Origin: Actinomycetota bacterium
Lineage (GTDB): Bacteria; Actinomycetota; Actinomycetes; S36-B12; UBA5976
NCBI GenBank assembly: GCA_947491175.1
Contig: CANLIF010000001.1
Location: forward strand, 1 to 62,543
DNA: 62,543 nucleotides
Direction: 5' to 3'
The first letter of the stretch is position 1, and every line of letters starts with the position of its first letter. Position numbers and translations under genes: made by a program. Below, one piece after another: positions 6,833-60,298 of the stretch. The notes beneath the pieces were generated by a model. That model was not told where the DNA came from. It saw only the letters and a list, made by a program, of their open reading frames with translations, and did no database searches.

Positions 6833-8398
6833 GTGACTGACGCCCGCCCAGTACTTGTAGTTGATTTCGGTGCGCAGTATGCCCAATTAATTGCCCGCAG
6901 AATCCGCGAAGCTCGGATTTATTCTGAAGTGGTTCCCAGCACTATGTCGGCCAAAGACATGTTGGCGAAAAACCCATTAGCAATAGTTCTTTCTGGTGGA
7001 CCTTCCAGCGTTTATGCCGAAGGCGCCCCACAAGTGGATGCGGCATTATTCGAAGCAAACCTTCCAGTGTTTGGAATTTGTTATGGCTTTCAAGCGATGG
7101 CAGCCACACTCGGTGGCAAAGTTGCCCAAACCGGCCTATCTGAGTTTGGTGCCACAGAGTTAAAAACTAACCCCGGCAGCTGCTTATTTGATGGGTTACC
7201 TGAAGTTCAAAATGTTTGGATGAGTCACGGCGACTCAGTTCAAGAAGCACCAGCTGGATTTACCGTAACGGCATCAAGTGCTGGGGCAGCAGTCGCGGCA
7301 TTTGAAGATCTTTCTCGAGGCTTGGCAGGTGTGCAATTTCATCCTGAAGTTATGCATTCTGAACATGGGCAAAAAGTTCTAGAACATTTCTTGTATGACA
7401 TAGCCAAGATTGAACCTACTTGGACACCGGCAAGCATTGTTGATGAACAAGTTGCTCGCATCAAGGCTCAGATTGGTAACTCAAAAGTTATATGTGGATT
7501 ATCGGGTGGCGTAGATTCCGCCGCCGCTGCTGCCTTAGTTCACAAAGCGGTCGGAGATAATCTCACCTGCGTATTTGTGGATCATGGCTTATTGCGCGCC
7601 GGCGAGCGTGAACAAGTGGAGCGTGACTATGTTGCTGCAACTGGAATTCGTTTAGTCGTAGTTGATGCAGCCGATCGGTTCTTAAGTGAGCTTGCGGACG
7701 TTACAGATCCAGAAACTAAGCGAAAAATTATTGGCCGAATCTTTATTCGAGTATTTGAAGATGCCCAAAAGCAATTGATTTCTGAGGCTGGTCAATCTGG
7801 AGCCACTATTGATTTCTTAGTTCAAGGCACGCTCTATCCAGACGTGGTTGAAAGTGGTGGTGGTACCGGCGCTGCAACTATCAAGAGCCATCACAACGTT
7901 GGCGGACTTCCTGATGATATTGAATTCCAACTTTGTGAGCCCCTTCGTGAGCTATTTAAGGATGAAGTGCGAGCAGTTGGTCGAGAACTGGGACTTCCAG
8001 AGGCGATGGTCATGCGCCACCCATTCCCTGGGCCGGGCCTAGGAATTCGAATCGTAGGAGCCGTTAGTAAAGAACGGCTCGACATTCTTCGAGCAGCAGA
8101 TGCAATTGTTCGTGAAGAAACCACAATCGCGGGATTAGATTCTTCAATCTGGCAATTTCCAGTTGTGCTGTTGGCTGACGTTCGCAGCGTTGGAGTGCAA
8201 GGTGATGGCAGAACTTATGGCCATCCGATCGTATTGCGACCAGTTTCAAGTGAAGATGCCATGACCGCAGACTGGACCAGATTGCCTTATGACGTATTGG
8301 CAAAAATTTCCAACCGAATTACTAACGAAGTTCGGGAAGTTAACCGCGTAGTTTTGGATGTAACGTCAAAGCCTCCGGGCACTATTGAATGGGAATAA
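6833..8398 (+). CDS. guaA: GMP synthase (glutamine-hydrolysing)
   Basis: 521 aa with a GTG start after AAGGA. Class-I amidotransferase (ICYGFQ, HPE) plus the ATP-PPase SGGVDS motif and a C-terminal dimerisation domain ending ...PPGTIEWE. Confidence 0.97.
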
Positions 8399-8576
8399 GG
8401 CGAAGCCGAAATTCCCATTCACAATAAACACCGTTTGGGCACAAGCGCCACCAGGCGCTGGTGAGGAATAAGGCGAAGCCGAAATTCCCATTCACAATAA
8501 ACACCGTTTGGGCACAAGCGCCGCCAGGTGCTGGTGAGGAATAAGGCGAAGCCGAAATTCCCATTCACAATAAACA
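8393..8576 (+). repeat. tandem repeat (73 nt x 2.5) that starts at the last codon and stop codon of guaA
   Basis: GAATAAGGCGAAGCCGAAATTCCCATTCACAATAAACA... recurs at 8393, 8466 and 8539. Copies 1 and 2 differ at 2 of 73 positions. Hairpin GAATGGGAAT (8387-8396) / ATTCCCATTC (8411-8420) spans the stop codon. Confidence 0.92.
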
Positions 8577-45579: not shown

Positions 45580-45840
45580 GGCACCCACCCGGGTCCGTGA
45601 TTGCGTTGCAAAGCAGTTCTTCGAAGTTGTTTTGCAACAAGCCGACGCCAGCCGCAGGCAAAGCGGTCCACGTAAGACGACTTTTGGTCGTTGAGCACGG
45701 TGCGGTTTAGAAGTAAGTCCTGCCTGTTCTTTGATCCAGATGGTCAAAATAGACAGCGAGGGTTAGTAGTTGCGATTGACGCAGCCAAAGCTCCAGCAGG
45801 CGAATGTGGGGTCGAAAATCAGGTCGGACGGGTGGGTGTC
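45580..45840 (+). ncRNA. candidate structured ncRNA, possibly a raiA-motif RNA
   Basis: 355-nt gap with no credible ORF. 45580-45597 pairs with 45825-45840 (16 bp, 2-nt bulge). The G45581-T45839 pair is a G-U only in + sense. Internal hairpins include GTTGCAAA/TTTGCAAC (45605-45638), GACGAC/GTCGTT (45676-45692) and 45724-45756. The site directly downstream of comF fits the usual comFC-RNA-raiA context. No covariance model was run. Confidence 0.5.
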
Positions 45841-56721: not shown

Positions 56722-57106
56722 AGATCACAACGCCTGCACTTAATGCAGTCGCGCCCAAGATCCACCAAGCATGCATTGCAAGTCCATACGCAAGATGTAG
56801 AACTTGCTCGCGTAGCAATGAGCCACCGCGCATTGGCGCAAACTGTCCAGTCGTCAAGATTGCAATTACCCAAGCAATCGGCACCACCCAGATTCCAGCT
56901 TGATAGTCCGATGTCCTAACGTTTGCAGCAGCAACCAGAGCGATGATTACCAATCCAAGGTTTGACATGATTCCAATGTCTCCAGTGGTAAAGATGTCTA
57001 TCCCCATCACAACCATCATGGAAATGCTGGTCAGGATTATGACGCCTGGGTATGTCCAACCATTTGGGGTCGAAGCACTTCCCAGTTGCTCAGTAACGTT
57101 TGCCAT
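56699..57106 (-). CDS. hypothetical integral membrane protein
   Basis: 135 aa with 4 hydrophobic segments and no recognisable motif. The 3' end overlaps the ispH 3' end by 23 nt. Confidence 0.55.
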
Positions 57107-57172
57107 GGCTTAAACGTATCGGGTCAAGGCCGAGTCTTTATGAAGGCGGGAATACGGCTACGCTTATGTGCC

Positions 57173-58246
57173 GTGGCCCTAACAATTGGAATCGTCGGAT
57201 TACCTAACGTCGGAAAGTCGACTTTATTCAATGCGTTGACGAAAAATAACGTCCTTGCTGCAAATTATCCATTTGCCACGATTGAGCCAAATACTGGCGT
57301 TGTAGAAGTTCCCGATGTTCGGCTTCCAGTTCTGGCACAAATCTTTAGCTCAGAAAGAATCTTGCCTGCGACGGTGACATTCGTGGACATTGCCGGAATT
57401 GTTCGCGGGGCAAGCGAAGGCGAAGGCCTGGGCAATAAATTCTTGGCAAACATTCGCGAATCAGAAGCAATTTGCCAAGTCATTAGAGCATTCAAGGATC
57501 CTGATGTGGTCCACGTCGATGGCGCGATTTCGCCTAAAGATGACATCGAAACAATTAATACCGAATTGATTTTGGCCGACATGCAAACTCTCGAGAAAGC
57601 AATGCCGAGATTGCTGAAAGAATCCAGACTTGATAAATCTAAAGCTGAATCTTTAGCAACTGCCGAAAAAGCAGTCGAGATTCTTAACTCCGGAAAAACT
57701 ATTTTTGAATCAGGTTTGGACTACGAGCCAATTAGGGAATTGTTTTTACTTACCGCAAAACCATTTCTATATGTTTTTAACTTAGATGAAGAAGAATTGA
57801 CCGACGAGACTTTGAAAAATGAGTTAAGCGCACTCGTTGCCCCAGTCGAAGCCGTATTCATGAATGCAAAATTAGAAGCGGAGCTTGGCGAACTTCCAGA
57901 AGATGAAGCCTTAGAACTTTTGCAGTCCGTGGGTCAGCAAGAGAGCGGCATTGCAATTTTGTCTCGAGTTGGATTTAAAACTTTGGGTTTGCAAACTTAC
58001 TTAACTGCTGGGCCTAAGGAATCGCGAGCCTGGACTATCCCAGTTGGCGCGACAGCGCCTGAGGCCGCTGGCGTGATTCACACAGATTTCCAGAAGGGCT
58101 TTATCAAAGCTGAGATTGTTGCCTTCGAAGACTTAGTTTCGGCCGGATCTGTTGCTGAGGCAAAGTCAAAAGGCAAAGTCCGCATTGAGGGCAAAGAGTA
58201 TGTGATGGTTGATGGGGATGTCGTTGAATTCAGGTTCAACGTCTAG
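57173..58246 (+). CDS. ychF: redox-regulated ATPase YchF
   Basis: IGIVGLPNVGKSTLFNALT, DIAG, NxxD-type motif and a C-terminal TGS-like domain. Start set at GTG 57173 (about 357 aa, the usual length); the track ORF begins at 57086. Confidence 0.93.
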   Translation: MALTIGIVGLPNVGKSTLFNALTKNNVLAANYPFATIEPNTGVVEVPDVRLPVLAQIFSSERILPATVTFVDIAGIVRGASEGEGLGNKFLANIRESEAICQVIRAFKDPDVVHVDGAISPKDDIETINTELILADMQTLEKAMPRLLKESRLDKSKAESLATAEKAVEILNSGKTIFESGLDYEPIRELFLLTAKPFLYVFNLDEEELTDETLKNELSALVAPVEAVFMNAKLEAELGELPEDEALELLQSVGQQESGIAILSRVGFKTLGLQTYLTAGPKESRAWTIPVGATAPEAAGVIHTDFQKGFIKAEIVAFEDLVSAGSVAEAKSKGKVRIEGKEYVMVDGDVVEFRFNV

Positions 58247-58378
58247 TTGAACCTGAATTCAACGGTAGGAAAAGTTGAATTTCATCAGGAGCCAACTTCT
58301 AGTTGAACCTAAATTCAACCATAAGAAAAGTTGAATTTCACTAGGAGACAACGTCTAGTTAAACCTGAATTCAACGGT
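58223..58378 (+). repeat. three consecutive hairpin repeat units (51 + 56 + about 49 nt) starting in the last six codons of ychF
   Basis: Unit 1 is GTTGAATTCAGGTTCAAC-gtcta-GTTGAACCTGAATTCAAC, a perfect 18-bp stem with stop TAG at the loop/stem junction. Units 2 (58274-58319) and 3 (58330-58375) repeat it with a 5-nt insertion in the 5' arm. Confidence 0.92.
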
Positions 58379-58426
58379 AAATAATGTGGTGCGCTAGATC
58401 AATATTTCTCAACTAGAATAAGGACA

Positions 58427-60298
58427 GTGACCCAATCTGCTGTCCGCAACGACCTTCGAAATGTTGCCATCATTGCCCACGTCGACCATGGAAAAACCAC
58501 GCTTGTAGATGCCATGCTTTGGCAATCTGGTGCTTTCCGCGCAAACCAAGATGTAAATGACCGCGTCATGGATTCGATGGACCTGGAACGTGAAAAAGGA
58601 ATCACTATCCTGGCCAAGAACACAGCCGTGCGATATGTCGGCCCAGCTGCGCAAGCGGGTGGCGTCACACTCAACATTATTGATACCCCTGGACACGCTG
58701 ACTTCGGTGGCGAAGTAGAACGCGGACTCGAAATGGTGGACGGTGTAGTCCTACTTGTTGATGCAAGTGAGGGCCCACTGCCACAGACTCGATTCGTACT
58801 TCGTAAGGCACTTCAAAAGCGACTTCCGGTAATTCTTCTGATTAATAAAGTAGATCGACCAGATGCTCGTATTGCAGAAGTCGTAGACGAAACTTACGAA
58901 CTGTTTTTTGATTTGGATGCCGACGAAGAGCAAATCCAATTCCCAATTGTTTATGCATCTGCAAAAGCTGGGCGGGCATCGTTAACTCGCCCCGTCGATG
59001 GTGGAATGCCGGACGAAGAAGATCTAGAACCATTGTTTGCGACTTTGATTGGAAGCATTCCAGCTCCAACTTATGATCCAGAAGCTCCACTTCAAGCCCA
59101 CGTAACAAACCTTGACTCTTCCCCTTACTTAGGTCGCTTGGCACTTTGTCGCGTTAAAAATGGATACATAAACAAGGGACAACAAGTTGCTTGGATGAAG
59201 TCTGATGGCACAATTGAGCGCGCAAAAGTTGTCGAACTGTTAATGACCGAAGCACTTGATCGAATTCCTGTTGATACTGCCGGCCCTGGTGACATCATTG
59301 CGGTGGCTGGCTTTGAAACCATCACAATCGGTGAAACTTTGGCTGATCCAGAACACCCAGTTGCGCTGCCACTCTTTGTAATTGATGAACCATCAATTTC
59401 CATGACTATCGGAATCAACAGCTCACCCCTTGCCGGCGAAACTGGCAGCAAGGTAACGGCGCGGTTGCTTAAGACTCGCCTGGAAGCTGAGATTGTAGGT
59501 AACGTTTCAATTCGGGTACTTGAGACCGAGCGACCTGATACTTGGGAAGTTCAAGGTCGAGGTGAACTTCAGCTCGCAGTTCTTGTTGAACTGATGCGCC
59601 GGGAAAAGTTTGAAATGACTGTTGGAAAACCACAAGTGGTTACCAAGGAAATTGGTGGCAAAATCCATGAACCAATGGAACGTCTAACAATTGATGTGCC
59701 AGAAGATTATGTCGGCGTTGTTACCCAGCTATTGGGCTTACGAAAAGGCCGCCTAGAACAGATGGTTAATCATGGAACTGGATGGGTCCGCATGGAATAC
59801 ATCGTTCCAGCCCGTGGCCTTATTGGTTTTCGAACTGAATTTCTTACCGAAACTCGTGGCACCGGATTAATGCATCACATCTTTGAAAAGTATGAGCCAT
59901 GGTTTGGTGAATTACGTACTCGTCCATCTGGCTCACTGGTTTCTGATCGGCGTGGCGCGGTCACATCGTATGCCTGCTTTGGTTTACAAGAGCGTGGCAC
60001 GTTGTTTGTTTCTCCAACTACTGAAGTTTACGAAGGCATGATTATTGGTGAGAATGCTCGCTCCGAAGACATGGACGTAAACGTGGTTCGGGAAAAGAAA
60101 CTTACAAACGTTCGATCTGCAACTGGAGATGAACTAGAGCGCCTGATTCCTGCCAAGCAACTAAGCCTTGAGCAGGCCTTGGAATTCTGTCGCGAAGACG
60201 AATGTGTTGAGGTAACTCCAACTGCAGTTCGAATTCGCAAAGTTGCCTTAGCAAAAGTTGATCGCGACCGTAATCGTACGAAAGCGCGCAATAACTAG
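58427..60298 (+). CDS. typA: translational GTPase TypA/BipA
   Basis: 623 aa. [29 protein letters not shown] and EF-G-like domains. Confidence 0.96.

Follow-up and report, generated by a model that had tools for sequence, protein, structure and literature searches.

The repeat array between ychF and typA is best read as a tandemly amplified 3'-end module of ychF, and it is one locus of a genus-specific family of hairpins. The array lies in a window of 62,543 nucleotides (the whole stretch of DNA that was analysed) from a 1.26-Mb, 75%-complete MAG of an uncultured actinobacterium. By itself, the ychF array is a local hairpin repeat at a gene 3' end. The interest lies in the family, in which the ends of core genes are capped by a hairpin made from the gene's own last codons together with a common 12-nt box. 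In this one genome-reduced, uncultured lineage, the capped core genes are those for both GroELs, trigger factor, Ffh, pyruvate kinase, GuaA, Asd, ProC and YchF.

Anatomy and folding of the ychF array

The two genes that border the array were identified by profile search. YchF matches NCBIfam TIGR00092 with 424 bits (cut-off 279) over residues 1–357, and TypA/BipA matches TIGR01394 with 913.5 bits (cut-off 757), the profile beginning at residue 10. The features of the locus are as follows.

57173–58246, plus strand: ychF coding sequence; GTG 57173 is the likely start (the mechanical ORF start is TTG 57086)
58222–58264, plus strand: hairpin 1, an inverted repeat of 19 nt with a 100% match
58264–58273, plus strand: linker 1, GGTAGGAAAA, a degraded copy of the family box CARTAARYACNG
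58274–58319, plus strand: unit 2, with L2 at 58274–58296, loop TTCTA and R2 at 58302–58319
58320–58329, plus strand: linker 2, CATAAGAAAA, a degraded box
58330–58375, plus strand: unit 3, with L3 at 58330–58352, loop GTCTA and R3 at 58358–58375
58376–58386, plus strand: box-like end of the array, GGTAAATAATG; a sister population has GTAAATAACG at the same place
58386–58426, plus strand: conserved typA upstream block and putative promoter, with a -10-like TAGAAT at 58414–58419, 7 nt before the GTG
58427–60298, plus strand: typA/bipA coding sequence with a GTG start, probably leaderless

The 5' arm of hairpin 1 (L1, 58223–58240, GTTGAATTCAGGTTCAAC) consists of the ychF codons for VEFRFN (GTT GAA TTC AGG TTC AAC), the loop is GTCTA (GUCUA in RNA, 58241–58245), and the 3' arm (R1, 58246–58263) is the exact reverse complement of L1. 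The ychF stop codon TAG occupies 58244–58246, with its UA within the loop and its last base as the first base of the 3' arm. A preliminary description of this DNA had reported a perfect 18-bp stem in unit 1 built from the last codons of ychF. This is borne out, and the stem extends to 19 bp when the pair C58222:G58264 is counted; it is A+T-rich, with G:C at 8 of the 19 pairs. Further downstream, L2 and L3 are 23-nt decayed copies of the ychF tail, each carrying a 5-nt insertion, and the tandem repeat as a whole (58223–58375, found with TRF) has a period of 56 nt, 2.6 copies and 85% matches. The arm motif occurs five times in the window against an expectation of 0.12, and elsewhere in the genome gives only weak matches with two mismatches (8, compared with 2 for a control pattern). 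A three-unit array adjoining typA is also present on three independent metagenome contigs of the sister population, so the array is not an assembly artefact. In the three metagenome assemblies of that population, units 2 and 3 are identical to each other.

The units differ greatly in folding strength. Unit 1 folds with -31.7 kcal/mol (z -9.9), and 0 of 200 shuffles fold as well. Unit 2 reaches -12.0 kcal/mol (z -3.5), and unit 3, at -11.4 kcal/mol (z -1.5, with 17 of 200 shuffles as good), is not significant. Because each arm is itself of the form GTTGAA-N6-TTCAAC, the array has a second pairing register, and the out-of-register pairs R1:L2 (-15.4) and R2:L3 (-11.1) equal units 2 and 3 in stability. 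The three successive hairpins of the preliminary description therefore represent one of two folds: the three units do exist, at 58223–58375, but only the first is strong and the second fold is equally possible. Hairpin 1 is the sole robust hairpin of the array in the window.

The ninth pair of the stem changes from C:G to U:A to U-G across units 1 to 3, just as had been described, and this series had been taken as covariation valid only in plus-sense RNA. That interpretation does not survive. As L2 and L3 descend from the ychF tail by copying and decay, the complementarity of R2 and R3, including the U:A pair, is inherited rather than independent covariation; among relatives, TTT/AAA is the commonest allele at this position. 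Minus-strand folds are about equally stable (-30.7, -15.5 and -9.3 for units 1, 2 and 3), and unit 3 also has a C.A, which is a G-U on the minus strand, so the window alone does not allow a strand to be called. When sense and antisense folding energies were compared for 34 arrays from three loci, the sense fold was better in 19 and the antisense fold in 15 (p=0.54), and no excess of sense-strand-only G-U pairs was found in these arrays; selection on RNA rather than on DNA is thus not demonstrated. The degraded boxes and weak stems of units 2 and 3 in the window count against an RNA-level reading.

Conservation at ychF and independence of typA

Across 30 same-genus genomes, the distance between ychF and typA ranges from 60 nt to 3.7 kb, and the inserts include an SRPBCC gene, a convergent metallophosphoesterase-like gene, two paralogous genes of 339 and 368 aa, an SDR gene and others. 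In 13 related species, ychF is directly followed by the hairpin or array, whichever gene comes next (typA, the SRPBCC gene or the convergent metallophosphoesterase gene). Alignments on the typA side restart at ~58386 in relatives with 0.5–3.7 kb inserted, and a conserved upstream block of ~41 nt stays with typA wherever typA sits. The comparison of this spacer in relatives, which the preliminary description had proposed, thus yields a hairpin that stays at ychF, a unit number that varies and a typA block that is separate. On this comparative evidence, the array is assigned to the 3' end of ychF rather than to typA.

Hairpin 1 is conserved with compensatory changes. In the ten species with an alignable hairpin, 99.4% of cells are paired. 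The five variable positions are all synonymous sites (in Val, Phe, Arg and Phe codons), and all five variable pairs are compensated on the other arm (11 cells), a score reached by 0 of 500 shuffles, with the relatives not being independent samples. A different ychF tail sequence in G023 has its own matching arm. Palindrome-templated repair or gene conversion could mimic compensatory evolution of the arms. The linker position in the ychF arrays of relatives is occupied by the family box (CAGTAAGCACTG, CAATGAACACAG or AATAAACAGAG). Across the tree, the number of ychF units is 0, 0.5, 1.5, 2, 2.5, 3 or 4, with array losses within the clade in G022 and G019; these numbers are lower bounds, as they come from short-read MAGs, and runs of N lie inside the arrays of G011 and G026.

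The block that travels with typA has the features of a promoter. TANNNT is found exactly 7 nt before the typA GTG in 31 of 31 genomes (as TAGAAT, TAGACT, TAAACT, TACACT or TAGAGT), the 7-nt spacer is variable in sequence (AAGGACA, TACGACA, TGGTTCA etc.), and an SD is absent in some genomes. For mycobacteria, PMC6448022 gives TANNNT as the preferred SigA -10, leaderless initiation for 24% of transcripts, and GTG as sufficient for leaderless initiation. The fixed position of TANNNT and the lack of a conserved SD predict that typA is leaderless and has its own promoter. In that case typA is probably transcribed leaderless from this promoter, and the array would lie upstream of it, outside any typA leader.

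These findings bear directly on the earlier suggestion that the array could serve BipA as a structured leader or thermosensor. The array does fill most of the spacer, as had been stated (132 of the 180 nt before typA are occupied in the source genome), and 10 nt of it (58297–58306) are complementary to 58409–58418, just upstream of the GTG. However, the array is absent or 0.5–3.7 kb away from typA in relatives in which the typA block is unchanged. With TANNNT at 7 nt in 31 genomes and no conserved SD, there would be nothing to sequester, and the complementary 10-mer is a conserved promoter segment that is present also in array-less species. We therefore regard a structured 5' leader, thermosensor or attenuator controlling typA/bipA as extremely improbable, and the ychF array appears to have no special link to BipA regulation. 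Nor does the array join the known classes of 5' leader, RNA thermometer or riboswitch: it is separable from typA, and a search of the array against Rfam returned only spurious microRNA-hairpin matches far below gathering scores. In the whole window, raiA is the single true Rfam family.

A family of gene-tail hairpins

The source genome contains at least 11 modules of the ychF kind, including those at groEL1, groEL2, guaA, pyk, proC, asd, ffh, tig and ychF (gene names outside the window come from reading translations by eye and not from a family search). Each module combines locus-specific arms taken from the gene tail with the common box CARTAARYACNG and has a variable copy number. In a genome-wide TRF analysis, all eight non-coding arrays with a period of at least 35 nt begin 6–19 nt ahead of a long ORF's stop codon, on the strand of that ORF. 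These arrays are located at groEL1, guaA, ychF, proC, a ferritin-like gene, pyk, an ABM-domain gene and tig, and at each of them a hairpin takes its 5' arm from the final codons and has the stop in its loop or 3' arm. Perfect stop-spanning stems of at least 10 bp were found at 13 of 1038 long ORFs, compared with 0–2 in shuffles, and include the single-copy stems of asd, ffh and groEL2. The 12-nt box stands directly 3' of the stem in 6 of these 13 with at most one mismatch (background 5e-4); this figure is partly circular, the consensus having been built from the same sequences, and the new loci in the relative G011 are independent matches. The boxes at individual loci are listed here.

guaA box: CAATAAACACCG
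pyk box: CAATAAGCGCAG
asd box: CAATAAGCACCG
ffh box: CAATAGATACTG
C12 gene box: CAATAGATACAG
proC box: AAGTAAATACAG

In G011 (683 kb), modules are found at the orthologous proC, pyk, asd, guaA, ychF and C12-gene tails, with the arms re-fitted to the local codons and the box retained, and additional genes, a xer gene among them, carry modules as well. Such a hairpin is absent from the ychF tails of 80 other Actinobacteria, and within the order, pyk tails from other genera and families lack modules. Judged by this distribution, the family is genus-specific and occupies the tails of housekeeping genes that are conserved and mostly highly expressed, chiefly where transcription units end. In the source genome, six of the 11 modules face a convergent gene, four have the next same-strand ORF 113–204 nt downstream (in the case of pyk, this is the pyrR leader), and one, that of ychF, stands before the putative promoter block of typA. 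Such an arrangement suits a 3'-end element able to act in either direction and agrees with the absence of strand bias in folding.

Two candidate identities of the box were rejected. It is not an in-frame back-up stop codon, since the frame of its TAA, TAG or TGA differs between loci. The mycobacterial RNase cleavage motif has the form RN|CNU. The box usually begins with C, yet it does not fit this form, and it was not accepted as a mycobacterial RNase cleavage motif. For mycobacterial RNase cleavage sites, PMC6448022 reports C at +1.

Function, turnover and relation to known systems

The preliminary description had proposed that the array could terminate ychF or stabilise its mRNA. The position of the element at the 3' end of ychF and the compensatory conservation of hairpin 1 support this proposal, but the U-tract is missing and termination would be incomplete. 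A terminator consensus scan of 57900–58700 gave 0 sites, with no U-tract after any hairpin, and a consensus promoter scan around the array found nothing. The stems in the window are followed by GGUAGGAAAA, CAUAAGAAAA and GGUAAAUAAU, none with a U-run. An intrinsic (Rho-independent) terminator was rejected on this ground and on the composition of the stem (8/19 G:C). Elsewhere the genome does have canonical stem-plus-T-run terminators, one of which follows the groEL1 array. In some relatives, a downstream gene begins ~20 nt after the module (the SRPBCC gene after ychF) or directly after it (the membrane-protein gene after the guaA module), so termination cannot be complete. The lack of a U-tract, the close downstream genes and the separate groEL1 terminator together make an exonuclease barrier or a leaky terminator more plausible than a full terminator.

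With moderate confidence, we read the array as mostly a unit-end 3' hairpin that would form or stabilise the mRNA end, amplified by recombination and acting at the RNA level. The anatomy, the compensatory conservation, the family, the independence from typA and the turnover in copy number are shown directly, while RNA as the acting molecule and any function of the box are inferred. The core of the module is hairpin 1, a reverse-complement copy of the last 18–19 nt of ychF directly after the stop, whose 19-bp stem with the stop in its loop can form both in the mRNA and in DNA. Next to the stem lie a short, A-rich box and then a decayed spare copy of the gene tail; units 2 and 3 would be extra copies that arose by slippage or by unequal recombination between tail copies. 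At the 3' end of ychF, the stem is proposed to be a structural barrier that blocks 3'-exonucleases and a leaky, U-tract-less terminator or insulator before the separate promoter of a leaderless typA. Given how far a ribosome is known to extend past its A site, a terminating ribosome would be expected to melt L1:R1. The freed R1 could pair with the tail copy that comes next (register 2), which would leave some hairpin present at all times, and this pairing suggests a possible role for the spare tail. If they act on RNA, such modules would be a compact way to define or protect mRNA 3' ends where intergenic space is minimal, and a natural part set for testing U-tract-less termination and stabilisation in Actinobacteria.

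The presence, number and tail alleles of the units vary at several loci. At guaA, the ancestral state is the stop followed by 2–4 nt and the ATG of a membrane-protein gene, and a patchy subset of species carries 1–2.5 inserted units. The single unit of G025 leaves the gene ending in an incoming TAA, with the original ...GGAATAG CC ATG displaced downstream of a 63-nt insert; no unit is present in its sister G020. Empty pyk tails occur in G012, G025 and G030, and in the other species the count runs from 1 to at least 4.5 units. Some units also hold tail alleles from other lineages. The spare copies at pyk of G021 carry the G014/G016 tail allele and the gene itself another allele, two synonymous alleles alternate in the ychF array of G023, each with its own matching arm, and at guaA of G009 the tail copies are local and the R arm fits the allele of another species. 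Within a genome, units are often 97–100% identical. Because of the spare tail, a unit is flanked by direct repeats of its own target, and general recombination could delete it precisely, amplify it or transfer it to the empty site of a relative.

These observations would also be expected if the array were a DNA-level tail cassette propagated by recombination and without RNA function, that is, a selfish or neutral minisatellite. A palindrome with a spare tail makes a direct-repeat-flanked unit that homologous or microhomology recombination could delete, duplicate or carry elsewhere, and the patchy presence between sister species (guaA in G025 and G020, pyk in the empty G012, G025 and G030), the incoming TAA and displaced tail past the 63-nt insert in G025, the foreign alleles of G021, G023 and G009, the near-identity of units within genomes and the lack of strand bias in folding are all consistent with it. 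However, the same genes keep their modules at ~15–25% divergence, with arms re-fitted and the box retained, which points to purifying selection on structure and box, and the modules are mostly at transcription-unit ends of highly expressed genes. A purely DNA-level origin also leaves unexplained how each gene acquired a new reverse-complement arm and the same 12-nt box, and we consider it rather unlikely. Were the modules to act on DNA, short cassettes could spread and swap gene tails without a dedicated enzyme. Whether they act on RNA or on DNA, the modules explain contig breaks and copy-number uncertainty in MAGs of the group.

A tentative proposal, possible rather than probable, joins both levels in genus-wide 'gene-tail cassettes', each composed of the reverse complement of the last 11–19 nt of a conserved housekeeping gene, CARTAARYACNG and a spare tail, and each self-portable and forming a two-register RNA hairpin. 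The spare tail would let a unit insert, excise and amplify on its own target and import the tails of other lineages; at the RNA level, the two-register 3' hairpin would be reset by the terminating ribosome. If this proposal is true, the templating of a new arm from each gene tail beside the same box would be a new mechanism. In the literature on stop-spanning, tandemly duplicated terminators and on tail-templated elements, we found nothing matching.

Variable gene content between ychF and typA would be explained if the units were site-specific recombination sites or their remnants, arising either by att accretion of integrative elements at a gene 3' end or as hairpin sites recognised by structure, like the attC sites of integrons. 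The gene-tail direct repeats, the inverted core geometry TTCAAC-N5-GTTGAA, the hypervariable ychF-typA islet of relatives and the foreign tail alleles in spare copies are in keeping with such an origin. Nevertheless, it is very unlikely in view of the other evidence: no cargo lies between units, no repeat copy is distal to the inserted genes, and the arms differ per locus, so that no one sequence-specific recombinase could serve all of them. Recombinase overlap regions usually measure 6–8 nt, and the 5-nt spacer is shorter. Among 38 genus genomes, most have the XerC/XerD pair as their only tyrosine recombinases, and the HUH Y1 transposase (PF01797) was found in 0 of 38, with control genomes positive. 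A dedicated integrase and RAYT/IS200-type mobilisation were discarded on these two results, respectively. A second ychF-tail copy in G018 was considered as attR and rejected, the two contigs being overlapping versions of one locus.

As a ychF 3'-end module, the array can be compared with several known systems. It resembles transcription attenuators in having mutually exclusive registers (L1:R1 and R1:L2) between which a ribosome on the last codons should decide; it differs in being at the 3' end of an ORF rather than at a leader peptide, in lacking a terminator U-tract and in having no regulated target identified. The 'I-shaped' U-tract-less terminators of Actinobacteria likewise have a long stem directly after a gene, often between convergent genes, but in the gene-tail modules the 5' arm is coding sequence, the stop is in the loop and the stem is A+T-rich, and the modules have a conserved box, tandem repeats and, in some relatives, a requirement for read-through.

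REP/BIME units, which stabilise mRNA 3' ends and terminate leakily, block 3'-exonucleases and allow read-through. These enterobacterial elements are, like the gene-tail modules, perfect or imperfect extragenic palindromes at gene 3' ends, often tandem, which lie just after stops, between convergent genes or in operons. Their arm sequence, however, is conserved, dispersed and mobilised by RAYT, whereas the arms of the ychF family come from each gene's own tail and the 12-nt box is what is common. In place of many dispersed copies, the arm motif is confined to the ychF locus apart from weak matches, and the RAYT family (Y1 HUH, PF01797) is found in none of the 38 genus genomes. The CIME/accretion remnants of streptococci, which are att-flanked pieces of integrative elements that contain no genes, share with the modules direct repeats of the target gene's 3' end, imported tails (here in G023, G025, G009 and G021), a displaced original and tandem accretion. 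They differ in that the gene-tail units measure 35–76 nt, have no integrase and contain the reverse complement of the tail in each unit; a recombinase with flanked cargo is also lacking, given the Xer pair and the missing distal repeat.

In MIRUs, different loci have the unit sequence in common, and the units encode small coupled ORFs. The gene-tail units are instead locus-specific hairpins of tail and reverse complement, with only the 12-nt box shared between loci. In other respects the modules are close to the mycobacterial MIRU-VNTR: both occur in an actinobacterial lineage and consist of tandem 35–76-nt units in short spacers, overlapping the upstream stop, with a copy number that varies between close relatives. 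The 56-nt period of the ychF array falls within the 40–100 nt of tandem intergenic MIRU-VNTR units of variable number.

Tail arrays and RNA families in the window

The design of the ychF array, in which the last codons of the gene form the 5' arm of a stop-spanning hairpin that is followed by a shared 12-nt box, is found again at two other genes of the window. A scan against Rfam placed one structured RNA in the same stretch. The features are as follows.

2394-2546, groEL1 tail array, period 70, 2.2 copies
8392-8576, guaA tail array, period 73, 2.5 copies, 98% identical
45584-45836, plus strand, raiA RNA (RF03072), 149.6 bits against a gathering score of 101.3

A canonical terminator, made of a stem and a T-run and separate from the repeats, comes after the groEL1 array. 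Within the window, no Rfam family other than raiA scored above threshold.

The ychF start and a short match near typA

The mechanically called ychF reading frame begins at TTG 57086 (window 57086-57175). Both the G-motif (VALTIGIVGLPNVGKS) and the match to the YchF profile are consistent with a start at GTG 57173.

Perfect complementarity of 10 nt was observed between 58297-58306, which covers the loop and the beginning of the 3' arm of the second ychF hairpin unit (TTCTAGTTGA), and 58409-58418 in the typA -10 region (TCAACTAGAA). Since the typA-side segment is also kept in species without arrays, this match is probably a coincidence of CAAC...CTAG words.

The ychF-typA spacer in relatives

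In relatives, the spacer between ychF and typA is a hotspot of gene content, ranging from 60 nt to 3.7 kb (loci L038-L051, L010, L017 and L034-L037). It holds varying combinations of an SRPBCC gene, a secreted metallophosphoesterase-like gene, two paralogous genes of 339/368 aa and an SDR gene; a 180-190-aa gene and a mannose-6-phosphate-isomerase-like gene are also found, all functions being read by eye from the translations. None of these genes is present in the window, which has either lost them or never had them.

Gene-tail repeats in related genomes

At the pyk loci examined, the arrays lie between the pyk stop and a conserved pyrR leader, and a PyrR binding site at one locus (L203, 1216-1278, minus strand) reached only 34.5 bits where the gathering score is 54.

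Runs of N occur exactly within or beside arrays at the ychF tail of G026 (L045), at a pyk array of G011 (C1, about 644470-644570) and downstream of guaA in G015 (L153). These runs may be assembly gaps at repeats or withheld sequence, and the true copy numbers may be higher.

At pyk in G021 (L211), ychF in G023 (L034) and guaA in G009 (L162), the tail alleles in the spare repeat units, the tandem copies beyond a gene's own end, are intact and are those of other lineages. The G021 spares read NNG* versus DNT* in the gene itself, and the two alleles at the G023 ychF tail differ only synonymously.

In G000, C8 19495-19579 (and C66 6982-7066) carries 6.1 copies of a 14-nt unit (GTTAAGTAAGCGCC), beginning 8 nt before the stop of a gene that looks like ftsQ; the tail of this gene is reiterated without a hairpin. 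Of the two Xer-type recombinase genes in G011, one (C1, 569505-570550) has a stop-spanning hairpin at its own end, with the box (CGAGTAAACACTG) after it.
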